Below are positions 4,727 through 18,811 of a DNA stretch of 21,234 bases, one piece after another. Position 1 is the stretch's first letter; every line of letters starts with the position of its first letter. This stretch comes from a virus (taxonomy: Duplodnaviria > Heunggongvirae > Uroviricota > Caudoviricetes): the IMG/VR virus record IMGVR_UViG_2698536401_000006. One strand, given 5' to 3'. The position numbers were made by a program, and so were the translations under genes. Below the pieces are notes generated by a model, which did no database searches, had not been told where the DNA came from, and saw only the letters and a list, made by a program, of their open reading frames with translations.

Positions 4727-5004
4727 ATTGTGGTGCTTTTTGTGGGAGTCATCCACTTACGCACTTTGTTTTGCCATGCCAGCAGTTAGCTTCTGCTGTA
4801 AAACTATTCATGCAGCAAACCTGCACTTCACCACAATGGTTAGCATACTTTTCCTGATTAAGATTTTGCCAAATATGCTAGCCATTGTTTCATGTATTGG
4901 ACCTCCTTACTTTTTATTAAAGAGATCCAATATTCACTACTCTGTCCGTATCTCTACTCAGGCATCAGCCTTCTTCGTTATCGTATACAGACGAGCGATG
5001 AATT

Positions 5005-5220
5005 TTAATCAGTAATGATGACATTTGCTGCTGCAGGACCTTTAGCACCACTCTCTATAGAGAAGGTAACCTTTTGACCTTCAAATAAGGTTCGATAATT
5101 ATCATTCTGAATCGCAGAAAAATGCACAAACACATCTTTACTACCATCAACAGGAGAAATAAAGCCGAAACCTTTATCAGCGTTAAACCATTTTACTAAA
5201 CCAGTCATTTTATTTGACAT
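5005..5220 (-). CDS. cspB: Cold shock protein CspB
   Basis: 71 aa: [67 protein letters not shown]..., CspA-family signature. Confidence 0.9.
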
Positions 5221-5520
5221 TCTACATTCCTTAACTTGAGCCTTTCGGCATAAATGGTTTGCATAACAGAAACGACTTCGTACTTAATTGGAGAGACTCA
5301 AAGAAGGAATAAGTGAATAACACCTGAAATGAGAACTGCTTTAGTAAACTACTTCGTATATCGTCTGTTCTTCAAACCGACGCAATCATTAACGCATAGT
5401 TGAACATATGAAGCAATGTTTATTTTAGACATCCAGCCATCTTCAACCCCATCAAAAAACTATAGCTTTCTTCAGGAACGTGTGTATAGTGCGCCAAGTT
5501 ATCAGTATTAAGGAATTTTT

Positions 5521-5733
5521 TTGTCCCGTAAAATGACAGGAATTGTCAAAACCTTTGACGGCAAAAGCGGCAAGGGTCTTATCACCCCATCCGATGGTCG
5601 TATCGATGTCCAGCTTCATGTTTCAGCGCTCAATCTCCGCGATGCAGAAGAAATTACCACCGGATTACGCGTGGAATTTTGCCGGATAAATGGTCTGCGT
5701 GGCCCTTCAGCTGCCAATGTTTACCTTTCATGA
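5521..5733 (+). CDS. cspF: Cold shock protein homolog CspF/CspH type
   Basis: 70 aa: [26 protein letters not shown]...[21 protein letters not shown]. The track start at 5521 is a TTG codon; an in-frame ATG lies at 5533. Confidence 0.8.
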
Positions 5734-5787
5734 GCTATATTAAAGCTTTAATTTCAGGCCCCATCGGATCACACATGGAGAGTTTTT

Positions 5788-5877
5788 ATGAATAACCCCG
5801 TCTGTCTTGATGACTGGTTGATTGGCTTTAAAAGCTTATGCTGTACTTTGGCCGTAATAGCTCTGCTAATAATATAA
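5788..5877 (+). CDS. Possible 29 aa hydrophobic small peptide
   Basis: Manual translation gives [29 protein letters not shown], with GGAGAG 6 nt upstream of the ATG. Below the ORF-track size cutoff; speculative. Confidence 0.3.
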
Positions 5878-6025
5878 TAAGCAGACTCATTGTGTTTAGG
5901 GACATTGTACTGGAAGAAAACATTTTAAACATCAGGCAAATAACCAAGTCACCAGCTAAATAATAAGTTAACAGACATGAGTCCCGGGATGAGATTCAAC
6001 ATTACCATTGCCCCATTTAAAGCAC

Positions 6026-6059
6026 AAAACCCGCTCATCAGCGGGTTTTCTACTTTTTC
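6026..6059. terminator. Bidirectional hairpin terminator (CCCGCT-catc-AGCGGG), candidate tR' for the late promoter
   Basis: A GC-rich stem flanked by T-runs on both strands (plus TTTTCTACTTTTTC, minus TTTTGTGCTTT), lying about 40-60 nt downstream of the pR'-like promoter on the minus strand. Confidence 0.65.
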
Positions 6060-6094
6060 TTAACGTCGGGTATACAAAGCCCATCGTTGAAAAA

Positions 6095-6123
6095 ATTTTA
6101 TCCATATTTTTTGAAAAATGCAA
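6095..6123 (-). promoter_or_regulatory. pR'-like sigma-70 late promoter just downstream of Q (TTGCAT-N17-TAAAAT)
   Basis: The minus strand reads TTGCATTTTTCAAAAAATATGGATAAAAT: -35 at 6123-6118, a 17-nt spacer, and -10 at 6100-6095. Position relative to the Q gene is as in lambdoid phages. Confidence 0.6.
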
Positions 6124-6154
6124 ACATCATGTCGCCATCTTCAGCAAAAATCAT

Positions 6155-6907
6155 TTATCTCGTCACCTTCCTCAATTGCGCTTCCGCGTATGCTTCTTCC
6201 TGCCAGCACTTTGTTACCAGTTTACCAATGACGTCCGCATACCCCTTATACCACTGATAATCGGTCAGGTCTGGTACCAGCTTCTGGACATGACGTCGTG
6301 CCAGCGTGGTCGGTAAACGACTAAACCGGTTTCCATTACAACGCCCACAAATCTTATATACCGGTACGCCATGAAACCGGGTTCTTTTTTCATCCAGAAC
6401 AATCCCTTTACCCTTACACCCTCTGCACGCTGTGCTGGCTTCGCCCTTACCATGGCAATGCTGACATAGTTCCTTCACCCATTCTTCCTTGATTACAGAT
6501 TCCCCGCGTCTGTAGTGTTTCACCACTTCGCGCAATACATTATAAAATCCCGTACCTGAACAATGCTCACAGCGAGCCTTACTTGCCGCAGACCTGGAGT
6601 AATCAGCAAAGGCAAAACTCACGAGGTAAGGAATAATCTGTAACCGGATTTCTTCACTCAATTTGTTCAATGTCGGGTTATCCAGTGCCATCGCGTAATT
6701 TAGCAGGCCTTCAATCGCAAACTGAGGGTCCTGAACACCAACTTTTGCCAGAAATAAGGCCAACCCAAGTGGTGCTTTCGACTGCACCATCCCCTGCGCT
6801 GCCATTACATCCGTAATTGTTAAACAACCGGTGCCTGTCGCTGGAGCGTCATCGCTCAATTTTGGAGATTTTGGGGAGTAATATTTTGGTAAGGCTTCAA
6901 GGTTCAT
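6155..6907 (-). CDS. quuQ: Late-gene antiterminator Q homolog
   Basis: 250 aa from the ATG at 6907 (MNLEALPKYYSPKSPKLSDDAPATG...), with Cys-rich zinc-binding motifs (CEHCSGTG, CQHCHGKG, CRGCKGKG, CGRCNG). The ORF track begins 30 nt upstream at 6937. Confidence 0.85.
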   Translation of the reverse strand: MNLEALPKYYSPKSPKLSDDAPATGTGCLTITDVMAAQGMVQSKAPLGLALFLAKVGVQDPQFAIEGLLNYAMALDNPTLNKLSEEIRLQIIPYLVSFAFADYSRSAASKARCEHCSGTGFYNVLREVVKHYRRGESVIKEEWVKELCQHCHGKGEASTACRGCKGKGIVLDEKRTRFHGVPVYKICGRCNGNRFSRLPTTLARRHVQKLVPDLTDYQWYKGYADVIGKLVTKCWQEEAYAEAQLRKVTR

Positions 6908-6920
6908 GCTCGTTCTCCAC

Positions 6921-8009
6921 TTACGCCAGTACGCCAATTGTCAGCGCGCGATCGATAAAACGAAATATCAGCTCCAGTTGGGAGCCATACTTATCTTCAA
7001 ATGCCACTGTATCCGTATGCAGCTCGTTGTGATGCTTTCTGCACAAAGGCAACACAAAGAGATCATGTGCTTTTGTTCCCATTCCGCCCTGCCCGTGACC
7101 AATCAGATGATGCGGATCGTCGGCTGGCATACCGCAGCAAGCACACGGCTGTGTCTTAACCCAACGTGTGTATTTCTCCTTAACCCAGCGGCGACGTTTA
7201 GGCAGCTTCATGAAAGATTCCGGAGACTCTGGATCAACGGTGATGCTTACCACCGTCTTTTCCTGTGGTGATTTTTGTTGCTGGTGGGCGTAAGGCAACG
7301 GTGCAAGATTTTTTGTGCGTTGTTTCAATATGCTGGTGGCGGTCTGCTCTCCCGGTACGATGTCGCTTTCGCGGTACACCGAGCAGATTTTTTCCGCTGG
7401 TAATCCCAGCGAACGACGCGATACAGCCTCAGGTAGTGCATCCACCACCTGATTGCAGACCGCCCACCAGGATAATTCAGCCAAAGATAATTCCCGCTCC
7501 TGCGTACCGCTTATTGCGTGACGGATGACGTCAATCACCCATGCTGTCAGATTTTGTTGAGCAAGCAGCTCCAGTGATTCCGATGTCTGGTCACGCAGTT
7601 GGTTGTCGCAGTGCCAGCACAACACCATTGCGCCGGTACCATAACGGTGAATGACTGTTTCAGTGTGATGGTAATCGCCATTAGGCCACTGGCAGGATGT
7701 AACATGACGTAATAGCCAGTCGGACAATGCGCCAACGCCGCCAGCAGCACGAATCACCCGTTCGTTACTAAAAAACGGCAGCAATGTTTTGTCTTCCGCC
7801 AGCGGCTGGCGAACGGCAGGAACGACTCCGGATGGCAGATTACGCATGCTTTTTGGTTCCGGTTCCACCAGCACTCGAGGATTATGAAATATCTGTATGG
7901 ATTCACGGCCCGGCTTAAGGACCACCAGCCCAAGCTCAGGCACCAGAACAGGTCTAAGTAATACCCGCACGTTACCTCCAGATCCGTTGCTGGAAAGTGC
8001 GGGACGCAC
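6921..8009 (-). CDS. ydfU: YdfU-like protein (DUF968 family) with a C-terminal HNH-like Cys/His motif
   Basis: 362 aa ORF directly upstream of Q. C-terminal CACCGMPADDPHHLIGHG...CRKHHNELH. Start uncertain: the ORF overlaps the upstream rem-like ORF by 38 nt, and an internal Met (MRNLPSG) exists. Confidence 0.65.
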   Translation of the reverse strand: MRPALSSNGSGGNVRVLLRPVLVPELGLVVLKPGRESIQIFHNPRVLVEPEPKSMRNLPSGVVPAVRQPLAEDKTLLPFFSNERVIRAAGGVGALSDWLLRHVTSCQWPNGDYHHTETVIHRYGTGAMVLCWHCDNQLRDQTSESLELLAQQNLTAWVIDVIRHAISGTQERELSLAELSWWAVCNQVVDALPEAVSRRSLGLPAEKICSVYRESDIVPGEQTATSILKQRTKNLAPLPYAHQQQKSPQEKTVVSITVDPESPESFMKLPKRRRWVKEKYTRWVKTQPCACCGMPADDPHHLIGHGQGGMGTKAHDLFVLPLCRKHHNELHTDTVAFEDKYGSQLELIFRFIDRALTIGVLA

Positions 8010-8250
8010 GTGGTGGGCGTTCGGAATAAGGCAGCCTGACAGAGATTATCCAGTGCCGATAGTCGAGACTGAGAGCTTTCTTAACCTCGAACCCGCGCCT
8101 GCGGTAAGAATGAATCAGCCATTCGGCCTGTTCTGCAGTGCATGGAGGGTGCTGGAACCATTCAGACTTGAATGCGTGAGAATACCGCCCGTGCGTGCAG
8201 GCAAGAACGGGCGAATTATCAGAATTGTAATATTTTGCGTTGCGTGCCAT
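7972..8250 (-). CDS. rem: Rem-like small protein (assigned by position)
   Basis: 92 aa ORF between the ydfU-like gene and hokD, where rem lies in K-12 Qin. Named from position only. Confidence 0.5.
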   Translation of the reverse strand: MARNAKYYNSDNSPVLACTHGRYSHAFKSEWFQHPPCTAEQAEWLIHSYRRRGFEVKKALSLDYRHWIISVRLPYSERPPRASRTFQQRIWR

Positions 8251-8316
8251 CGGTTTTCTCCGGTGGCACGGTGTTACTCAGCGGGAGTTCAGCCCCGCGC
8301 AAGATTGTAGATGAGT

Positions 8317-8568
8317 TTATTCTCCTGAAAAAGCAGAAAAGCCAGCTTTTATTCCGATCTCTTTCAATGCCTGTAATGAAGTGACAAACTCACCTTCGCG
8401 CAAGATAAATCCGTCCGTGACCCGAGCATCCACAAAATTAATTAACGCAGCCCCATTCTTTCGCAAACACATAATGCGGTAATGACTAACAAGATTTCCA
8501 TTTTCAACGCACACAGCATAGAGGCCATCTTCACAAAAAATTTTACGCAGTTCTTCGATGTTCATCAT
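8317..8568 (-). CDS. Hypothetical 83 aa protein, no recognisable family
   Basis: ORF with SD GGAAGGA 6 nt upstream of ATGATG, downstream of the relBE-hokD terminator. I do not recognise it. Confidence 0.5.
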   Translation of the reverse strand: MMNIEELRKIFCEDGLYAVCVENGNLVSHYRIMCLRKNGAALINFVDARVTDGFILREGEFVTSLQALKEIGIKAGFSAFSGE

Positions 8569-8685
8569 CAGAATCCTTCCGGATAATTAGCTCTCCCCTT
8601 TAAGGGACCATCCCTCTTATCCCTGCGCGCTACTTAAGTATTTTTGATTCTATTCCGGCACCGTCCAGAACTTCAAACGCGTTGA

Positions 8686-8714
8686 AAATAAAAACAAAAA
8701 CCCGCCGAAGCGGG
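8686..8714 (-). terminator. Rho-independent terminator of the relBE-hokD operon
   Basis: The minus strand reads CCCGCTTCGGCGGG followed by TTTTTGTTTTTATTT, about 70 nt downstream of the hokD stop. Confidence 0.75.
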
Positions 8715-8784
8715 TTAAGTGCGGGTGCGTTGAGGATGCCTGCCACATCAGAGGTGGCGAGGGATTTCTCCCCCGCCGGGTCTC

Positions 8785-8940
8785 TTACTCCTCAGGTTCG
8801 TAAGCTGTGAAGACAGCGACCTCCGTCTGGCCGGTTCGGATTCGTACCTCGCAGAGGTCTTTCCTCGTTACCAGTGCCGTCACTATGACGGTTAAACAGA
8901 TGACGATCAGGGCGATTAACATCGCCTTTTGCTGCTTCAT
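8785..8940 (-). CDS. hokD: Hok-family membrane toxin HokD (RelF)
   Basis: Manual translation gives MKQQKAMLIALIVICLTVIVTALVTRKDLCEVRIRTGQTEVAVFTAYEPEE (51 aa), matching remembered HokD. SD AGGAGAAG upstream. Absent from the ORF track because of its size. Confidence 0.85.
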   Translation of the reverse strand: MKQQKAMLIALIVICLTVIVTALVTRKDLCEVRIRTGQTEVAVFTAYEPEE

Positions 8941-9011
8941 AGCCTGCTTCTCCTGTCAACGCAAAGCAGAAGTGTCACCTTCGGTGCGAAACAGAGATGT
9001 CATGCTTTGGT

Positions 9012-9299
9012 TCAGAGAATGCGTTTGACCGCCTCGCTATATACTTCCGAGCGTTCTCTTTTCCCAACAGAAATCACGAAAACGACAACTTTCTCGTCTA
9101 TAACCTGGTATACAAGGCGATAGCCTGAAGACCGGAGCTTAATCTTGTAACAATCAGGCATACCACGGAGCTTGTTTGCTTCAATCCGGGGTGACTCAAG
9201 TACTTCAACCAGCTTCTTTTTCAACTGTTCACGTACCGTCGAGCCCAGCTTTCGCCATTCCTTTAGTGCCCGCTCGTCAAAATCCAGAAAATACGCCAT
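9012..9299 (-). CDS. relE: RelE mRNA interferase toxin
   Basis: 95 aa: MAYFLDFDERALKEWRKLGSTVREQLKKKLVEVLESPRIEANKLRGMPDCYKIKLRSSGYRLVYQVIDEKVVVFVISVGKRERSEVY..., matching remembered RelE. Start overlaps the relB stop (TGATG). Confidence 0.9.
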   Translation of the reverse strand: MAYFLDFDERALKEWRKLGSTVREQLKKKLVEVLESPRIEANKLRGMPDCYKIKLRSSGYRLVYQVIDEKVVVFVISVGKRERSEVYSEAVKRIL

Positions 9300-9538
9300 C
9301 AGAGTTCATCCAGCGTCACACGTACTGGCTTAGGATTACGAAGCCGTTCTTTCACTATCTCCACAAGTTCAGCATCTTCATCACTCAGGAGTGTCTGTTT
9401 GAACGGCAAGCGTTCATTGTCAGCGATATACTCGAGCATGAGACGAAGCGCTTCAGAAGGAGTTACACCCATTTTTTCAAGCGCGGCGTAAGAACGCGCT
9501 TTAAGTTCATCGTCAATACGCAGGTTAATGCTACCCAT
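9299..9538 (-). CDS. relB: RelB antitoxin
   Basis: 79 aa: MGSINLRIDDELKARSYAALEKMGVTPSEALRLMLEYIADNERLPFKQTLLSDEDAELVEIVKERLRNPKPVRVTLDEL. SD GAGG upstream. Confidence 0.9.
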   Translation of the reverse strand: MGSINLRIDDELKARSYAALEKMGVTPSEALRLMLEYIADNERLPFKQTLLSDEDAELVEIVKERLRNPKPVRVTLDEL

Positions 9539-9544
9539 GTCTTA

Positions 9545-9590
9545 CACCTCTTGTAATTACAAATGTCATTACAAGTATCGCACTACAACA
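9545..9590 (-). promoter_or_regulatory. relBE promoter/operator (relO) with TTGTAAT/ATTACAA hexad repeats
   Basis: TTGTAATTACAAATGTCATTACAAG sits immediately upstream of the relB start, with palindromic TTGTAATTACAA. Confidence 0.7.
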
Positions 9591-9868
9591 TGCTTAGGGC
9601 AAGTCACGAAGGAAGTCAGAAAGTAGTCGTAAGAACGGTGATCACTGTCCGCTTTGTGCCAGGAGCAGCCATTGCTAAGTCCATCCTGTATTGTGCAGGT
9701 CAGCTCGTTTTTAAAGAGTCCGGCCATCATCTTACTGGTACAGACACCATATACTTTGTGACGGTCAGGCTACATATGCACAACTCAACTTATTCATCTA
9801 TTTTTTGCTTTAGCATGTCAGTGTTGCTTTCTCGTCGGCGGGTGAGCGGTGACCTGACCTGTCGATAA
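9563..9868 (+). CDS. Doubtful ORF, YdfV-like by position and length
   Basis: 101 aa ORF in the relB-flxA gap with no RBS and no recognisable features. It overlaps the relO promoter region. Listed only because K-12 annotates a 101 aa ydfV here. Confidence 0.2.
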   Translation: MSLQVSHYNMLRASHEGSQKVVVRTVITVRFVPGAAIAKSILYCAGQLVFKESGHHLTGTDTIYFVTVRLHMHNSTYSSIFCFSMSVLLSRRRVSGDLTCR

Positions 9869-10020
9869 AGGAACGTAACACGTTTTATGCAACACCCGCA
9901 TGCGGCAGAAAATTATTGCCGAACGTTTACCCCTGTCAACAAGCTTTACTTTCTGAGGCGCGCCAGCCCGCGAGGAAAACAATCTGAACATCAAACAATT
10001 AATGACACAAGAAATACGAT

Positions 10021-10047
10021 TAAAGATTTTTTTGTGCATGCCGATAG
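10021..10047 (+). promoter_or_regulatory. Sigma-28 (FliA) class 3 flagellar promoter upstream of flxA
   Basis: TAAAGATT-N11-GCCGATAG compared with the consensus TAAAGTTT-N11-GCCGATAA; about 24 nt upstream of the flxA start. Confidence 0.75.
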
Positions 10048-10070
10048 TGCTTTTTTAAAAGGAGAAATCT

Positions 10071-10403
10071 ATGTCTGTCACAATTCAGGGAAATACCTCA
10101 ACCGTTATTTCAAACAACTCCGCCCCGGAAGGAACATCAGAAATAGCCAAAATCACAAGACAAATTCAGGTGCTGACTGAAAAGCTTGGGAAAATCTCAT
10201 CGGAAGAGGGGATGACGACACAGCAGAAAAAAGAAATGGCTGCATTGGTACAGAAGCAAATTGAAAGCCTCTGGGCTCAACTGGAGCAGTTGTTAAGGCA
10301 GCAGGCAGAGAAAAAGAATGAAGACGCGACAGTTCAGCCTGATAAAAAAGAAGAGAAAAAAGACGATACAAATACCGCTGGCACCATTGATATTTACGTC
10401 TAA
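10071..10403 (+). CDS. flxA: FlxA (FliA-regulated protein)
   Basis: 110 aa: MSVTIQGNTSTVISNNSAPEGTSEIAKITRQIQVLTEKLGKISSEEGMTTQQKKEMAALVQKQIESLWAQL... RBS AAGGAGA. Confidence 0.85.
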   Translation: MSVTIQGNTSTVISNNSAPEGTSEIAKITRQIQVLTEKLGKISSEEGMTTQQKKEMAALVQKQIESLWAQLEQLLRQQAEKKNEDATVQPDKKEEKKDDTNTAGTIDIYV

Positions 10404-10417
10404 GTGACAGCCGTATT

Positions 10418-10441
10418 GTGGCCCTCATCGGGCCACTTTTC
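10418..10441 (+). terminator. Rho-independent terminator of flxA
   Basis: Hairpin GTGGCCC-tcatc-GGGCCAC followed by TTTTCG. Confidence 0.6.
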
Positions 10442-10839
10442 GCCATCAGCCTTTTCTTTAAAGACATATTATCTTTGTATCATTTCTGATAGTTAACATT
10501 ACAAGATATAAGTAATGGACGCACTCCCAATTAGTCTATTTAAATCGCCACGAGTTTAACTGACAACCCATGATCAATTATGAATTGCAACTATTTCTGT
10601 AGTCACTTTTGTGGGGACAGTCCACAAAACTGCCAACTTCCGCTTCTTGCTCTTAGCGGACATTAGCATAGGCTATTTACCATAACGCCTCATTACGCGC
10701 ACCGCCCAGACTGACTCAGCGCGTTTCTGGCATATCCCCGGTAAAACAAGTAACAAACCACCCGAAAATGAACACCAGAAACGCGACTTAAGAATCTACC
10801 CTATGAATGGATATGCACTCAACCGAATCGATCTTGGTT

Positions 10840-12153
10840 TCAATCTTTTTTATCGGGATCAGGCTTCTTTTTAGGTAACTTCGGGGGCTTAACTTGCTGA
10901 TGACTTTGCGTTCGGCGCGTAAGCCAGGGATGGTCAGCTTTAGGTTTAACATAGTATTTTGAGCGTAAATCAATACGGGCATTATCCACTCGTTCATGGA
11001 CACTCTTTTCATCATCCAGTGGTATAGGCTCCGGGCCATCAACATACTTTTCCCAGCCCAGCGCTTTCCCGTCATACAGAACGTTAATTTCACCGTCAAA
11101 GTTCTCGCATACAGTAACAACCGAATGCCTAAGTCGATATCCCCGGCCCTCACTGCGTACCTGAAACGCACTGCTTTTGTACTGGAAAGTGAGATTTTTA
11201 GACAGAACGCGCTTCGCCTGTAGGCTGAAGATATAACCCAGTTCCTCTTCAGAATGGTGCACATCAAGATGAGCATTATCAGTAGTACGAGGCGACGTAG
11301 CGAACCGGTTGTTATAGGCTTCAATAAAGGTCGGCAACCATGCATTTGCTGTTTCAATATCACTGATATTCTGAAGCCGCATTTCTTTGACCAGCCTGTC
11401 CTGTAGTGTCTGATTGGCGCGCTCTACCCGCCCTTTTGCCTGCGGGCTGTTGGCATGGATTGGCTCGATGCCCAGTGTCTTTATCGCACGAGTGAACTGG
11501 GTCAGCTCACCTTCCCGCTCTGGGTTATTTACCCTGAATATACTGTGTCTATCAGAGTAGAGAGCGAGCGGTACGCCATGATCATTAAGGTAACCCCGGA
11601 GGGTTTCCATGTAAGCCCGGGTTGTTTCAGCAGGCACAAAACGCAACGCCATCAACGCACTGGTGGCATCATCAATGAAAACGATCAGTGTACATCTGGG
11701 GCCTCGATTTTCAAACCAGTCATGAGGTGAGCCATCAATCTGGATCAGTTCACCGTAAGATGGTCGTCGCATGCGGCGTTGATATATACGGGCAATTTTA
11801 CGACGGCGTTCACGCCATAACCCCTCTTCTATCATCCACTTTCTGAGAGTTTCAACGGATAAAGATAAACCGTGTATCTCGCGCAATTTTTCGCACGCAA
11901 ACGTAGGTCCAAAATCAGCGTAACGGCCTTTGAGGAGTGAAATTACTGTTGCTCTGAATTCAGTAGAAAAGGAATTATTAGGACGCTTTCCACGTCGGTG
12001 GGAAACCAGACCAGAAGGCCCTTCATTTCTATACCGTTGCACCAGACGTTTAACCTGCCGAATAGAAATGCCAATGCGTGCCGCAGCTTGTTCCTGAATA
12101 ATCTGAAGTCGGTGGAGTTCCTTATGACTCATCGTAACAGTCTCTTTGATCAT
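10840..12153 (-). CDS. DDE transposase with N-terminal HTH and rve (integrase-core) domain, IS481-like in architecture
   Basis: 437 aa with an N-terminal HTH region (ISIRQVKRLVQRY) and D/D/E-type core segments (IQIDGSPHDWF, LIVFIDDATS, LYSDRHSIF, ERANQTLQD). IS family is not established and IS ends were not identified. Confidence 0.75.
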   Translation of the reverse strand: MIKETVTMSHKELHRLQIIQEQAAARIGISIRQVKRLVQRYRNEGPSGLVSHRRGKRPNNSFSTEFRATVISLLKGRYADFGPTFACEKLREIHGLSLSVETLRKWMIEEGLWRERRRKIARIYQRRMRRPSYGELIQIDGSPHDWFENRGPRCTLIVFIDDATSALMALRFVPAETTRAYMETLRGYLNDHGVPLALYSDRHSIFRVNNPEREGELTQFTRAIKTLGIEPIHANSPQAKGRVERANQTLQDRLVKEMRLQNISDIETANAWLPTFIEAYNNRFATSPRTTDNAHLDVHHSEEELGYIFSLQAKRVLSKNLTFQYKSSAFQVRSEGRGYRLRHSVVTVCENFDGEINVLYDGKALGWEKYVDGPEPIPLDDEKSVHERVDNARIDLRSKYYVKPKADHPWLTRRTQSHQQVKPPKLPKKKPDPDKKD

Positions 12154-12370
12154 GAAAAATCCCCCAGAGAATTGTCTGGGGACATTTTAGAATGGTTCAA
12201 AGGGGACATTACAGCTTGGTGTTAACAATAGCCTGCTTCTCCGTGCCTTTCGGCACGTAAGAGGCTAACCTACATGTGTCTAGCATGAAATTGGCCTCAG
12301 ATTAATGTTAAGCGTCTTGCAGGACGCGTAATGTTAACTGGGGCTTTTCTCTATCTGCCGTTGGTGTCCA

Positions 12371-12402
12371 TGCCCGAGGCAGATAGCCTCAAGCACCCGC
12401 CG
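12371..12402 (+). repeat. Left copy of a 32 bp imperfect direct repeat flanking the low-GC cassette
   Basis: TGCCCGAGGCAGATAGCCTCAAGCACCCGCCG; 27 of 32 nt match the copy at 14390-14421, with an identical 14-nt core CCTCAAGCACCCGC. Confidence 0.6.
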
Positions 12403-12636
12403 TGATTCTACAAAAACATTACCCACCTTTCCAGCAATTCACAACAACTCCATGCAAATAGTAAGTAGAATAATAAGTTATTAGTATTAGCAATTTACTT
12501 AGTTTCTAATTTGTGCCAATGATTTTCATTTTTGCATGAAAAATACCTTAACATTTTATATTTACTTACTATTTGTAAGCCCCATCAGTTCTTTCTGATG
12601 GCGGCTGGTATTTCAGTTCCAGATATAGTATATGCT

Positions 12637-13665
12637 TTACGCCTTAATAGGGTTAATCACATTTCCGCTATCCGTACCATAGTATTTTTTTGTAGTCATG
12701 CCTTGTTTATAATAATCATTTAACAGTTTGAGAAAGTTTCTTCCTTGCCTCTCATCTTCTATGACTAATTTACCATGCTCATTGGTCTTAAACTCTTCGT
12801 TCTGAAACATTTTTAGCACATCATTCATAGCTTGAACATCATTCTTTTCCAGAACCGTATGGTTACCTTTCTCAGCGATATGAGTGAGAATTTTTCTCAG
12901 TGATGGCTTATGAAGAATAGCTTGTTCAATAACATCTAAACCTTCAATAAGATCAAGTTCTTTAATTGTATTTAATGTTTTTTGTGCAGCTTCTGTAAAC
13001 TCAACCTCCAAGCCTACAATAGCCTCAAAACTTTTCTTATGAAATACATAAAATTGATCTTTTATATAAATACAATCGATTTTGTCATCAAAATTGACTG
13101 CGCTGCCATCAAATGATCTTAACTCTTTATCTGTTTTATCAAACAAAGCGAATACGCGCTGAGTCATATTTTGTGGTTCATTTGTTGTGACTTTCCCCCT
13201 GCTGATTTTTCGGAAAGAATAAGTGACGTCAGCCCCCTTTTGGACTTTAATACAATAGGCCCACAAATCATTCTGAACCTCAGCCAGAGAGGTAAGTACA
13301 ACTGGTTTATCATTCTTTATATCGTTATTAATAACTTTTGAAAACGATATCGCGTTATTCATAGCATAGGCATAAATCTTATTATCAATATCATCATCAA
13401 TAACAGTATACTTTTTCATCACAATATCATCTTTCGAAGCATGAGAAATAATCTGGTTTGATAAAGTATACTTAAAAAATTTAGCAATATCTGGAGCGAT
13501 TGGAGCTTTAATGATTTTAAAATCGAATTTATCAACAACTCTTGCGGTTCTACTCATACCCGCTTTAAGATGTCTAGTAATGAAATACAACGATATTTTC
13601 GCCGCATCATCATCCTTAAGTTGCTCAGCATACTCTAATAATTCTTCAAGCTTTAACATTTTCAT
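12637..13665 (-). CDS. Hypothetical 342 aa soluble protein, second gene of the low-GC cassette (candidate defence effector/sensor)
   Basis: AT-rich ORF with Lys/Asn/Ile-biased codon usage unlike the surrounding prophage. Translationally coupled (ATGA overlap) to the upstream membrane protein gene. No motif I can name. Confidence 0.75.
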   Translation of the reverse strand: MKMLKLEELLEYAEQLKDDDAAKISLYFITRHLKAGMSRTARVVDKFDFKIIKAPIAPDIAKFFKYTLSNQIISHASKDDIVMKKYTVIDDDIDNKIYAYAMNNAISFSKVINNDIKNDKPVVLTSLAEVQNDLWAYCIKVQKGADVTYSFRKISRGKVTTNEPQNMTQRVFALFDKTDKELRSFDGSAVNFDDKIDCIYIKDQFYVFHKKSFEAIVGLEVEFTEAAQKTLNTIKELDLIEGLDVIEQAILHKPSLRKILTHIAEKGNHTVLEKNDVQAMNDVLKMFQNEEFKTNEHGKLVIEDERQGRNFLKLLNDYYKQGMTTKKYYGTDSGNVINPIKA

Positions 13666-14276
13666 TCCTTATGGGATTCAGCATAAAAAAGTTTTGGGCC
13701 CACGTCCTCAACATCAAGAAGATCATCTTCCTCCAAATACTTTGATTTAGTCAAAACCATACCAGTGCGTTTTTTGTCGCTTTCTAAATCCAAATATGTA
13801 ACTTGATATAAAGTATAATTAATACTTATTGTAGGATTTATAAGTATCATGCTTGAATTAATATATATTAAAGCCGTTACCGTTAACAATATTGCTATAG
13901 GTATAACATTAGTTAAAGTGGATAGATCCTGAAATACAAACGGAATTATATATGTAAAAAGATAGCTTATTGATTCATTGTTTTTATTTTCAATATCTAT
14001 AACTCTTACAGTTCTACCACTAGTGGCGCATCGACGTTTTATATTTTTTAAAAAAATTGTTAATCCTACAATACCAAATAATGATAATACACCAATGACA
14101 CTGACCGCGCCAAAGTATTTAAAGAAAATAGTTAATGATTCAACACTTATACCTTTCCAATTTAAATAGCTTCTATAAGTATACAATTGCACAAAACACA
14201 TGATAAAGAATAGGGGAAGGTATGACACTATAAATAGCGAAACTCTAGCACCTAAATGTAGTTTATTTACTCTCAT
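13662..14276 (-). CDS. 4-TM membrane protein, first gene of the low-GC cassette
   Basis: 204 aa with four hydrophobic segments (about 12-31, 48-74, 103-115, 123-146) and an acidic C-terminal tail. AT-rich. Its stop overlaps the start of the downstream gene. Confidence 0.7.
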   Translation of the reverse strand: MRVNKLHLGARVSLFIVSYLPLFFIMCFVQLYTYRSYLNWKGISVESLTIFFKYFGAVSVIGVLSLFGIVGLTIFLKNIKRRCATSGRTVRVIDIENKNNESISYLFTYIIPFVFQDLSTLTNVIPIAILLTVTALIYINSSMILINPTISINYTLYQVTYLDLESDKKRTGMVLTKSKYLEEDDLLDVEDVGPKLFYAESHKE

Positions 14277-14389
14277 AACTACCCCACAGCCTACACGTCT
14301 AGTATTTTATGTTATTTCGAATAATTATGCATCAGATTACCATCCTACAATTGTGCATAAAACGAGCATTTTGCTGATTTTTCTGCGGA

Positions 14390-14421
14390 TGCCTGAGACA
14401 GACAACCTCAAGCACCCGCAG
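14390..14421 (+). repeat. Right copy of the 32 bp imperfect direct repeat flanking the low-GC cassette
   Basis: TGCCTGAGACAGACAACCTCAAGCACCCGCAG; pairs with 12371-12402. Confidence 0.6.
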
Positions 14422-14484
14422 CAATTTTACTTAACTCCCGCTACCTCGCCAATATGAAATCAATAAGAAAGGTGCTCCATAAAA

Positions 14485-18753: not shown

Positions 18754-18811
18754 TTTCTGGTGACGTTTGGCGGTATCAGTTTTACTCCGTGACTGCTCTG
18801 CCGCCGTTTTT
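18754..18811 (+). ncRNA. dicF: DicF small regulatory RNA (ftsZ-targeting sRNA) with intrinsic terminator
   Basis: TTTCTGGTGACGTTTGGCGGTATCAGTTTTACTCCGTGACTGCTCTGCCGCCGTTTTT matches remembered DicF, including the terminal hairpin and U-run. Located between ydfB/C and dicB. Confidence 0.8.

Follow-up and report, generated by a model that had tools for sequence, protein, structure and literature searches.

The structured non-coding region at positions 12154-12420 of the window (the whole 21,234-nucleotide stretch of viral DNA analyzed here, an E. coli Qin-like prophage) is two known things abutting: the toxin gene hokD contributes its RNA control region, and a mobile element its left end. We consider it very likely that the hokD/sokD regulatory half came to be joined to an ISEsa1-like left end when a cargo-carrying IS transposed into hokD. 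For the window, this means that the structures belong to a hok mRNA leader with its Sok antisense RNA and to an IS end; they are neither a new RNA nor an att site. Nothing about the region itself is unusual; what deserves interest is the relBE-carrying element that targets hok. Annotation came from the RefSeq sequence of strain A1, which is identical to the window, and a tRNA/tmRNA scan of the region found none. The first-pass annotation had listed repeats and hairpins for 12154-12420, all of which are present where it placed them, and had proposed a transposon end, an att-like site or a structured RNA belonging to the neighboring cassette.

The right part carries the hokD leader and Sok region

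The right part, 12228-12411, is the promoter-proximal regulatory half of a prophage hokD/sokD locus, with the -10 of hok, the mRNA leader and its fold, and the gene for the Sok antisense RNA. The features are:

12228..12398, minus strand: hokD mRNA 5' leader, which starts at +1 (GGGUGCUUGAGG) and extends past the ribosome-binding site to the second base of the AUG; severed from the Hok ORF
12405..12433, minus strand: promoter-like site of the hok leader (-35 TGGAAA, 17-nt spacer, -10 TAGAAT; 9/12 matches in a consensus scan)
12278..12352, plus strand: predicted Sok antisense RNA, with a single-stranded 5' part, a long hairpin (12293-12345), then UUUUCUCU
12243-12248 and 12266-12271, plus strand: candidate Sok promoter (GTGCCT, 17 nt, TAACCT)
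12209..12286, minus strand: mok/hok frame remnant, with 19 native codons followed by 6 codons and a stop within the IS end

The Rfam search proposed in the first-pass annotation returned a full-length match to RF01794 ("sok") on the minus strand at 12398..12227, covering model positions 1-157 with a score of 104.1 bits (E = 5e-23; gathering score, 59 bits). By megablast, homology with hok loci spans exactly 12228-12411, and the leader is 97% identical to that of the intact hokD locus of strain HZ13. The folding and covariance analysis across homologues that was proposed along with it gave a strong fold on the minus strand at 12228-12398 (-64.5 kcal/mol, z = -4.56), unequaled by any of 200 shuffles. 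When 23 consensus pairs were compared in 8 divergent leaders, the main helices were kept and compensatory changes had altered both sides of five pairs, all of them in two elements, the hairpin at the 5' end and the small one preceding the ribosome-binding site. The motifs confirmed in this stretch are nested hairpins (AGCCT 12230-12234, GTGCC 12243-12247, tttc, GGCAC 12252-12256, AGGCT 12262-12266), a hairpin (GCGTC 12312-12316, ttgcag, GACGC 12323-12327) with TAATGTTAA on either side at 12303-12311 and 12329-12337, and an inverted repeat (TATCTGCC 12352-12359, GGCAGATA 12378-12385; repeat I5). The claim of dense structure stands for 12228-12398, on fold z score, Rfam match and covariation; in 12154-12227 the overall fold is no better than shuffles (z = -0.50).

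The plus strand of the Sok region reads as a 5' tail, a long hairpin and a U-run, and its fold at 12266-12350 (-32.8 kcal/mol, z = -5.10) was also unequaled in 200 shuffles. On this strand only, the two copies of TAATGTTAA listed as direct repeats base-pair with each other via G-U wobbles. A simple consensus promoter scan called no plus-strand promoter, so the assignment of the Sok promoter rests on analogy; the predicted Sok ends and promoter at 12243-12352 presumably lie where the plasmid R1 Sok would place them. The promoter-like site of the hok leader is directed towards the IS and the transposase gene, and homology with other hok loci takes in its -10 only, ending at 12411.

The earlier reading that the region has no convincing ORF is right: the sole remnant is 25 codons of the mok/hok frame (12286-12209, minus strand). 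The intact 70-codon frame of HZ13 translates as MLDTCRLASYVPKGKEKQA-MKQQKAM..., compared with MLDTCRLASYVPKGTEKQAIVNTKL* in the window. There is no Hok-family ORF at the leader's AUG, where the IS inverted repeat comes next (AUU GUU AAC...). Since hokD starts 3.27 kb further on, the window leader is a fragment of a toxin–antitoxin locus rather than a complete system. It resembles hok/sok type I loci (RF01794) in its 5' hairpin, its central long hairpin (whose opposite strand is the Sok terminator), its GAGGC/GCCUC helix, the small hairpin before the ribosome-binding site and the mok-type upstream frame. It differs from them in ending two bases into the AUG, where it joins the IS end with no toxin ORF; the toxin and a candidate fold-back element lie 3.3 kb off, on another transcript:

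8785..8940, minus strand: hokD coding sequence from the annotation (translation MKQQKAMLIALIV...), the toxin once under the orphan leader
8723..8735, minus strand: candidate fold-back element CCUCAACGCACCC, read in the sequence downstream of hokD

In HZ13 and in prophage L093, hokD is contiguous with the leader. Read from 8735 to 8723, CCUCAACGCACCC is complementary to the leader 5' end at 12387-12398, with one 1-nt bulge, and an ungapped pattern search for the element matched the two leader copies only. Its fold-back role is one that we take over from the model of the R1 hok mRNA.

The left part is the end of an ISEsa1-like element

The left part, 12154-12227, is an ISEsa1-like end with an inverted repeat, two sub-terminal repeats of the transposase-binding type and a hairpin:

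12202..12227, minus strand: left terminal inverted repeat (IRL), TGTTAACACCAAGCTGTAATGTCCCC, which holds the outer GGGGACATT repeat; kept in 60+ loci
12161..12186, minus strand: inner sub-terminal repeat (GGGGACATT, 12178-12186) with the hairpin CCCCAGA(caattc)TCTGGGG and a U-run, directly before the transposase AUG
10840..12153, minus strand: ISEsa1-like (IS1202 family / ISNCY) DDE transposase of 437 aa (NCBIfam NF033594)

The two direct GGGGACATT motifs (12178-12186 and 12202-12210, spacing 24; repeat family D6) and the near-palindrome TCCCCCAGAGAATTGTCTGGGGA at 12160-12182 had both been listed, and the hairpin and repeats of 12154-12227 are conserved features of the IS family. Homologous IS copies of other species and genera begin exactly at 12227. 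The proposal of a transposon end is borne out for 12154-12227 and not for the rest; simple alignment to a known IS terminus, which the first-pass annotation had named as the finding that would count against its reading, holds for the left 74 bp only. A terminator-like sequence was called on the minus strand at 12182..12161. In the predicted fold, the hairpin would take the likely ribosome-binding site of the transposase, GGGGGA, into pairing; it would either hide that site or stop transcripts entering from outside. Of 24 distinct left ends of the family, most fold into an equivalent hairpin, in which the TGTCCCC repeat pairs with the purine run preceding the start codon.

The transposase scores 456.4 bits against NF033594 (cut-off 250) and is 98% identical to a RefSeq 'IS1202-like element ISEsa1 family transposase'. 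Compared with the transposase of a plasmid unit (L086), 437/446 residues are identical, with a single 9-aa in-frame gap. The 9 missing residues fall in the N-terminal DNA-binding region, and the copy in the window may therefore be immobile. We considered a truncation of the IS near 11024-11110, given that RefSeq calls the gene 'incomplete, missing C-terminus' and K-12 homology breaks at 11024; this is ruled out by the 437-aa ORF, which is the intact plasmid transposase minus 9 aa. Two annotations can be corrected accordingly: 'YdfW' is the transposase C-terminus, and the 'incomplete' transposase is essentially full length.

A 3274-bp unit with a 15-bp duplication separates the leader from hokD

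The element extends well beyond the transposase gene:

8954..12227, minus strand: whole transposable unit of 3274 bp, in the order IRL - transposase - flxA - ydfV - relB - relE - IRR
8954..9005, minus strand: right terminal inverted repeat (IRR), ending ...CTTTGCGTTGACA, with two sub-terminal GACA(T/C) repeats, directly after relE
9299-9538 and 9012-9299, minus strand: the relBE cargo beside the IRR, relB and relE respectively (RefSeq annotation of the identical strain A1 sequence)
12228..12242, no strand assigned: target-site duplication copy A, GGAGAAGCAGGCTAT on the hok strand, an exact 15-nt repeat flanking the unit
8939..8953, no strand assigned: target-site duplication copy B, which gives hokD its ribosome-binding site and the 'AT' of its start codon

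The IRR is an imperfect complement of the IRL, ending ...GTTGACA, with GACA(T/C) blocks at both ends. Its alignment with IRRs from multi-copy relatives, among them those of Hahella and Rhabdochlamydiaceae, shows no variation in the terminal TTG.G.TGACA or in either GACA motif. The pair fits the IS1202-family pattern of imperfect repeats that start 5'-TGT and have a second conserved block around position 20. We also tried a right end at ~10640, the point up to which IS copies of other genera are homologous; this was ruled out, as neither an inverted repeat nor a duplication occurs at that point. Judged from the alignments, ~10640 is the start of a variable cargo region and the real IRR is 8954-9005. 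The RelB and RelE proteins of the window also occur in two plasmid units (L086 and L087).

Since the 15-bp duplication GGAGAAGCAGGCTAT flanks the unit, the unit sits between the hokD ribosome-binding site and its AUG. The matching empty site is found in HZ13, where QueH, leader and hokD follow one another uninterrupted, and positions 6001-6016 of HZ13 align both to window 12228-12243 and to window 8939-8954. The unit is likewise absent from this site in the IMG/VR prophages L089 and L093-L096, which bear Kiwa and are otherwise 99.3-99.7% identical. Duplications of 15 bp were found in the window, in a Shigella locus (L019) and in plasmid unit L086, and duplications of 15-16 bp in more than 20 copies of relatives. 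None was found in L006-L018, loci that end before the right end; longer plasmid stretches showed them.

In the history that we propose, a cargo-carrying 'transporter' IS (flxA, ydfV, relBE; 8954-12227) would have landed between the ribosome-binding site and AUG of hok, in a 15-bp stretch that was duplicated by the transposition. The comparison shows two consequences: the leader, the Sok region and the mok start are orphaned upstream of the IS, and hokD, with a regenerated ribosome-binding site, lies directly behind relBE. We infer that Sok no longer controls hokD and that the gene is now transcribed from the relBE promoter, which is the relBEF arrangement of E. coli K-12. Sok is presumably still made from the orphan, along with a short leader transcript reaching into the IS end, and there is no longer a toxin in cis to regulate.

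A different reading is that the orphan is no relic, either because its Sok acts in trans on paralogous prophage hok mRNAs or because the hok promoter and leader were co-opted to drive or regulate the transposase. The orphan is kept at 98.9-100% identity in 671 genomes, E. coli genomes hold other hok leaders up to about 95-97% identical to it, transcription from the leader heads for the transposase gene, and of about 13 insertions associated with hok, 12 are oriented with the IRL towards the leader. High identity, however, is what recent shared ancestry among E. coli strains predicts anyway, and the fragment has been lost in K-12-type strains without known consequence. Moreover, the IS hairpin or terminator should block incoming transcripts, and the orientation bias may reflect oriented target recognition, as in the dif-targeting subgroup of the family (10.1101/2022.12.17.520857). 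We regard a function of this kind as unlikely, and prefer to see the orphan as what the insertion left behind.

The element recurs at the same position in different hok loci

The unit is found outside this prophage. A copy on the Enterobacter plasmid NZ_CP096189 is 98.5% identical over 3.39 kb and is flanked by a duplication of its own, GGAGAAGAAGGCCAT, at the start of a plasmid hok gene, that is, at the same position in a different hok gene. NZ_CP024882 carries a 4600-bp variant with other cargo plus relBE in the same target, and in L007 the same target is hit in the opposite orientation. A full Rfam sok match ending at the IRL was seen in seven loci. IS copies that are 100% identical over 1200 nt adjoin four hok leaders only 51-70% alike, which indicates target-specific insertion. 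As these comparisons show, the IS lineage repeatedly picks the same position in different hok loci. The preference is not absolute: about 9 of some 22 distinct enterobacterial left flanks are not obviously hok.

The surroundings of the hok target include a AGCCTCTTA box, a GCC-GAAA-GGC hairpin and the ribosome-binding site.

These junctions might instead go back to one old insertion, spread by homologous recombination through the hok flanks, or they might be the survivors of insertions lost elsewhere; neither involves any choice of target. Conserved stretches common to hok loci could support such recombination, many plasmid copies lie in related IncF backbones, and selection may favor insertions that silence a toxin. 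Indeed, the many plasmid copies may stem from few insertion events, and plasmid counts do not equal independent events. What argues against this explanation is that each complete unit has, on either side, the 15-mer native to its recipient (prophage, GGAGAAGCAGGCTAT; plasmid, GGAGAAGAAGGCCAT), an arrangement that recombination outside the duplication cannot produce. In addition, the junctions vary by 0-1 nt and one is inverted, the identical IS copies meet their dissimilar leaders right up to the junction, and distant relatives of the IS transpose ordinarily, with 15-16 bp duplications. Spread without target choice is therefore quite improbable in our judgment, and repeated insertion at one position is the reading that we keep.

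The Kiwa cassette and its flanking repeat

The cassette to the right of the region is a defence operon flanked by a second piece of hok sequence:

12637..14276, minus strand: Kiwa defence operon, with kwaA at 13662-14276 and kwaB at 12637-13665 (PADLOC, NCBIfam)
14389..14430, minus strand: second, truncated hok copy upstream of kwaA, consisting of the promoter -10 and the first 29 nt of the hok mRNA

PADLOC identified KwaB (2.8e-159) and KwaA (1.3e-101), encoded by overlapping genes on the minus strand; the RefSeq record lacks kwaA and should be corrected. The flanking repeat described in the first-pass annotation is present, with 12370-12411 and 14389-14430 being 81% identical (repeat D1). 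On its right side the homology continues, as window 14389-14482 is 88% identical to HZ13 6143-6236. We asked whether the repeat might be a target duplication of the cassette; this was ruled out, the copies being 81% identical and each separately homologous to hok 5' ends.

The suggestion of an att-like site, in which the structured stretch or its flanking repeat would mobilize the Kiwa cassette, has some observations on its side. The Kiwa genes stand between the two copies of the 42-nt direct repeat, L095 and L099 show a mosaic boundary immediately upstream of the second copy, at about 14437, and the cassette is missing at the same place in HZ13 and ATCC 8739. The copies, however, are diverged hok promoters with mRNA 5' ends, and at their level of identity they are neither a fresh duplication nor a core site. 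No integrase or recombinase was found in or beside the cassette or the region by annotation, PADLOC or NCBIfam. The repeat does not cover most of the structure (12228-12369), which the Rfam model accounts for, and the contexts of related Kiwa operons (L097, L098) are unrelated and contain no hok fragments. Exchange by homology among lambdoid phages, at hok sequences that they conserve, suffices to explain the observations. We consider an att site very improbable, and the repeat is read here as two diverged hok 5' ends; the repeat that does record a mobility event is the 15-bp target duplication of the IS.

The remaining proposal, a structured RNA of the cassette, was correct in kind for 12228-12398, which matches RF01794, and wrong as to ownership, for this is the detached regulatory half of hokD. 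A regulatory RNA of the Kiwa operon, controlling it, could be imagined from the position of the stretch on the same strand, about 225 bp downstream of kwaB, and from its strong structure. Yet in prophages without Kiwa a leader 97% identical stands directly before hokD; the leader is present in about 780 E. coli genomes, only 156 of which have the cassette; and a hairpin-terminator-like sequence lies between kwaB and the leader. Such a role for the RNA is scarcely credible, and we assign the leader to hokD.

Comparison with known IS-disrupted hok loci and IS1202-family elements

Pedersen and Gerdes reportedly described in 1999 that hokA, hokC/gef and hokE of K-12 have IS150 or IS186 downstream of the reading frame. 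The hok locus in the window is similar in that an IS abolishes normal hok mRNA regulation. In contrast to those loci, the IS lies on the upstream side, precisely where the ribosome-binding site would meet the AUG; it is of a different family, brings a type II toxin–antitoxin system with it and is found again at this position in many hok loci. Insertion of IS186 downstream of gef is described in PMC3562002.

The inverted repeats of the IS1202 family start with TGT, and one subgroup makes repeats of 15-17 bp (10.1101/2022.12.17.520857). The unit in the window shares the transposase family and the TGT-starting inverted repeats, and its 15-bp duplication fits that subgroup, for which 15-16 bp is typical. 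ISEsa1 itself is listed from ISfinder as 1609 bp with no duplication found (PMC10132070, Table 7). In elements of the window type, by comparison, the left module is conserved for about 1.6 kb from the IRL, and the right end with its duplication is found beyond 1.7-3 kb of cargo; the catalogued right end of ISEsa1 is thus probably not the real one.

Elements of the ISAba32 / ISAjo2 subgroup, which also belong to the IS1202 family, insert at a distance of 5 bp from XerC/D (dif, pdif) sites (PMC10132070; 10.1101/2022.12.17.520857). As in our case, their insertions are oriented and keep a set distance from a DNA site that is conserved and structured; the difference is that the target here is the hok translation-initiation region, not dif, and that the duplication is 15 bp, not 5-6 bp. 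These two sources report no targeting by other IS1202 subgroups. Transporter IS (tIS: ISKpn21, ISKpn65, ISRel10) also have passenger genes between the transposase gene and the IRR (PMC10132070). The cargo of window-type elements differs from theirs in being variable (flxA-ydfV, or cytochrome b with a CDF transporter) and in always ending with relBE at the IRR. Our literature search for hok together with ISNCY, IS1202 or ISEsa1 found neither hok targeting nor relBE as IS cargo described.

The relBEF operon of the K-12 Qin prophage has the same RelB, RelE and HokD proteins and the same relE-hokD spacer, with the IRR and the duplicated 15-mer. It differs in that K-12-type strains keep the window only up to 11024, and they therefore lack the left part of the IS and the orphan leader, which reveal the origin of the operon. 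A passage in PMC6379469, citing Ramisetty and Santhosh 2016, mentions integration of relBE into an ancestral 70-codon hokD frame, and co-transcription of relBEF is cited in a passage of PMC5120126.

Implications

Taken together, the comparisons make it probable that ISEsa1-type elements are relBE-ended cargo transposons that choose the 15 bp from ribosome-binding site to start codon in hok genes, at a fixed position and mostly in one orientation. Each such insertion would strip a toxin of its leader and RNA antitoxin and put it behind a type II toxin–antitoxin system; by the same reasoning, this is probably the origin of relBEF and of the orphan leaders seen in about one in seven E. coli genomes. 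The boundaries of ISEsa1 as catalogued are indicated to be misplaced, which would explain the absence of a target duplication from its catalogue entry. The IS1202 family would gain a second case of site-selective insertion, after the dif-targeting subgroup that has been proposed as a tool for directed insertion. With its filled and empty sites, the proposed insertion would supply a mechanism for a textbook oddity, namely that hokD (relF) lacks a sok gene and comes third in the relBE operon. One addiction module would thereby be carried by a transposon into another, in prophages and in large conjugative plasmids of Klebsiella, Enterobacter and Citrobacter.

An orphaned hok leader adjoins an insertion sequence end

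The window matches a Qin-like lambdoid prophage in E. coli strain A1 with 100% identity. The structured region at 12154-12420 had been read in the first-pass annotation as a possible transposon end, att-like site or structured RNA of the neighboring cassette. An Rfam search of the whole window, one of the checks proposed there, showed that minus-strand positions 12398..12227 match RF01794 ("sok antitoxin") over the full length of the model, at 104.1 bits (gathering score 59; E = 5e-23). Despite its name, this model represents the hok mRNA sense; it runs from GGGUGCUUGAGG through the ribosome-binding site to an AUG, which in intact loci is the start of the Hok ORF. The remaining Rfam matches in the window are two cspA thermoregulators and DicF. 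These are Qin-typical content: two cspA-type thermoregulator leaders of cspB/cspF-like prophage genes and the DicF sRNA (2094-2479, 4989-5381, 18755-18806).

When 5,426 complete E. coli genomes are compared by megablast, the stretch homologous to hok loci is exactly 12228-12411. Leftward of 12228 lies the end of an insertion sequence (IS): homologous copies in Klebsiella, Citrobacter, Enterobacter, Kluyvera, Hahella and others all start at window position 12227 with TGTTAACACCAAGCTGTAATGTCCCC. The transposon-end reading thus holds for 12154-12227 but not for 12228-12411, which is hok leader and Sok region. This IS-leader junction is common to between 671 and 781 E. coli genomes. The motifs listed in the first-pass annotation are all present where it placed them.

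Components of the structured region
12154-12227: IS left end, with the left terminal inverted repeat (IRL), two GGGGACATT sub-terminal repeats and a hairpin/U-run directly preceding the transposase AUG
12228-12411: orphaned hok leader, Sok region and hok -10
TATCTGCC/GGCAGATA motif pair: 5' hairpin of the RF01794 model
GCGTC hairpin with TAATGTTAA arms: central long hairpin, with a 16-nt insertion relative to the model
AGCCT/AGGCT: GAGGC...GCCUC helix of the model
GTGCC-tttc-GGCAC: small hairpin preceding the ribosome-binding site in the model

The dense structure noticed at first reading is real and non-random. Both the hok leader on the minus strand (z = -4.56) and the plus strand at 12266-12350 (z = -5.10) fold far better than shuffled controls, and the helices are kept in eight divergent hok leaders, with compensatory changes at five pairs. 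The 74-nt IS left end, taken as a whole, folds no better than chance. The two TAATGTTAA "direct repeats" pair on the plus strand through G-U wobbles, which become C-A mismatches on the opposite strand; in the predicted fold, this hairpin, followed by UUUUCUCU, fits the terminator hairpin of antisense Sok RNA.

The IS inserted at the start codon of hokD

Strain HZ13 carries the same prophage region without interruption, in the order QueH - leader - hokD - rem. The stretch from 12228 onward is a structured RNA locus, as had been suggested, but its owner is hokD and not the cassette. BLAST aligns window 8001-8954 with HZ13 5063-6016 and window 12228-12411 with HZ13 6001-6184, so that sixteen HZ13 bases are present twice in the window and 8955-12227 is extra. 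An exact 15-mer, GGAGAAGCAGGCTAT, lies on both sides of the extra DNA and takes in the hok ribosome-binding site, the spacer and the first two bases ("AU") of the start codon. Empty sites are found in five IMG/VR prophages (L089, L093-L096): between 16000 and 12228, a stretch that includes the Kiwa cassette, they share 99.3-99.7% identity with the window, and from 12228 they run straight into intact hokD. The upstream frame is joined to hokD in HZ13 as a single ORF of 70 codons, of which the window retains the first 19; these run on to a stop within the IS end. This remnant matches a remark in a passage of PMC6379469 (citing Ramisetty and Santhosh 2016) that an ancestral 70-codon hokD was shortened by relBE integration.

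The ORF at 10840-12153 encodes an ISNCY/IS1202-family transposase (NF033594, 456 bits), whose relatives RefSeq names "IS1202-like element ISEsa1 family transposase". Compared with the plasmid transposase, it differs only by an in-frame deletion of 9 aa (SINRHITQE) close to the N-terminus. RefSeq's label "incomplete, missing C-terminus" is an artefact, because the K-12 'protein YdfW' (10840-10989) corresponds to the final 49 codons of this ISEsa1-like transposase; apart from the deletion, the ORF is full length. Most of 24 distinct family left ends have a hairpin joining the inner TGTCCCC repeat to the purine run before the start codon, which would shield the transposase gene from outside transcription.

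The transposable unit carries relBE

Homology to the IS copies of other genera ends near window 10640, beyond which the sequence varies from locus to locus; neither an inverted repeat nor a duplication is found near this point. We defined the family ends from multi-copy relatives (Hahella, Rhabdochlamydiaceae and several MAGs), which are 1.45-1.6 kb long, make 15-16-bp target duplications, and have an IRL of the form TGTTAGCCC...TAATGTCCCC and a right terminal inverted repeat (IRR) of the form ...GGGGACATT...TTG(C/G)GTTGACA. The genome of Hahella sp. SMD15-11, a good reference for these ends, has at least 10 copies of a 1449-bp relative, two of them in tandem with overlapping 16-bp target duplications (L026 2929-5860). 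In the window, the 15-mer is adjoined by a family-type IRR whose two GACA(T/C) blocks are spaced 25 nt apart (24 nt at the IRL), so that the transposable unit spans 8954-12227.

The transposable unit and a plasmid variant
8954-9005: family-type IRR, directly after relE and adjoining the 15-mer
8954-12227 (3274 bp): transposable unit, IRL - transposase - flxA - ydfV - relB - relE - IRR
L087 5601-7296: cargo of the NZ_CP024882 variant, starting at the equivalent of window ~10640

Two plasmids confirm, at the level of sequence, that the whole relBE-carrying unit moves. NZ_CP096189 (Enterobacter roggenkampii, IncF) has all of it (98.5% identity across 3.39 kb), with a mok fragment on one side, a plasmid-type hok gene on the other, and that hok locus's own 15-mer, GGAGAAGAAGGCCAT, flanking it. 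In NZ_CP024882 (Citrobacter freundii), the same hok target is occupied by a variant of 4600 bp, with cytochrome b and a CDF cation transporter in place of flxA-ydfV; relBE still adjoins the IRR. ISEsa1 is catalogued at 1609 bp with no detectable target duplication (PMC10132070). Since this length corresponds to no more than the conserved left module, the right end given for ISEsa1 is probably wrong.

Independent insertions point to hok as the preferred target

About 13 of about 22 distinct left flanks of enterobacterial IS copies are the ribosome-binding-site-to-AUG stretch of a hok leader, and at seven enterobacterial loci the full Rfam sok match stops at the first IRL base. The junction is present in at least 423 of the 619 PLSDB plasmids bearing the IS left end, many of which will share ancestry. 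Further evidence that the insertions are independent comes from four IS copies (L008, L011, L014, L017) that are 100% identical over 1200 nt, while the leaders they adjoin are mutually only 51-70% identical. The IS-hok junctions differ by a base; at L014 the insertion falls downstream of the AUG but at about the usual distance (~15-16 nt) from where the ribosome-binding-site motif begins, and at L007 the IS occupies the same target in opposite orientation. In Leclercia sp. EMC7 (L023 2840-3010), the IRR of a relBE unit is followed directly, at the hok ATG, by another IS of the family (70% identical), in the order relE-IRR-GAAGGCTATG-IRL. Nested or tandem hits are thus possible, because target duplication regenerates the target. 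L082 likewise has a second family IS in this position. Spread of the unit by homologous recombination is unlikely, because each complete unit has the recipient's own 15-mer on both sides. We conclude that this IS lineage selects the hok translation-initiation region.

The obvious precedent is the ISAba32 subgroup of the same IS1202 family, which targets dif; no targeting is reported for the other subgroups (PMC10132070; 10.1101/2022.12.17.520857). In the literature searched, we found no mention of hok targeting by such IS and no description of a relBE-carrying, hok-targeting IS1202-family element.

In Kluyvera sp. (L015 2837-2950), where the IS flank is not hok, an Rfam isrO match on the opposite strand (58.8 bits; the gathering score is 42) extends across the IRL junction. 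In Klebsiella pneumoniae plasmids, the same plasmid hok leader is also broken at other positions by ISKpn28-type (IS481 family) elements. Related IS may in general accumulate in hok leaders.

The Kiwa cassette lies within the hok/sok locus

The two genes at 12637-14276 encode KwaB and KwaA of the Kiwa defence system (kwaA, 13662-14276, minus strand; PADLOC KwaA, 1.3e-101); the strain A1 RefSeq record annotates the KwaB-like gene but not kwaA. The cassette is common to 156 E. coli genomes. Its flanking repeat (12370-12411; 14389-14430) is not an att-like site: it is a pair of diverged sequences, each holding the hok -10 and the initial 29 nt of the mRNA. The second copy, with 52 nt upstream, is 88% identical to the corresponding part of HZ13, and a phage mosaic boundary lies at ~14437. 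Kiwa is thus inside the hok/sok locus, between duplicated hok 5' ends and behind a truncated hok promoter. With its retained -10 (GTAAAAT) and 29 nt of hok mRNA, the upstream hok copy may act as promoter for Kiwa. Because Kiwa also exists with intact hokD, its placement is older than, or independent of, the IS insertion.

Consequences for hokD and the orphan leader

In the window, the leader, Sok region and mok start are detached from hokD, which lies 71 bp behind relE and whose ribosome-binding site has been regenerated. hokD would have lost Sok control and be transcribed together with relBE; a passage of PMC5120126 cites co-transcription of the relBEF operon. Downstream of hokD, just before a terminator, CCUCAACGCACCC (8723-8735, minus strand) is complementary, with one bulge, to the orphan leader's 5' end. 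It probably served as fold-back element in the ancestral hokD mRNA, and its partner now belongs to another transcript.

The orphan is probably still a source of Sok and of a short leader transcript, the latter from a TGGAAA-17-TAGAAT promoter. This transcript would enter the IS end and there be stopped or masked by the IS hairpin. The orphan leader and Sok would have no cis function left; in trans, they may act on paralogous hok mRNAs or on expression of the transposase. K-12-type strains retain the window up to 11024 only, and the origin of relBEF is not visible there because the left part of the IS and the orphan leader have been lost.

As a sequence feature, the region is made up of known kinds; its context reveals a relBE-carrying, hok-targeting element of the IS1202 family.
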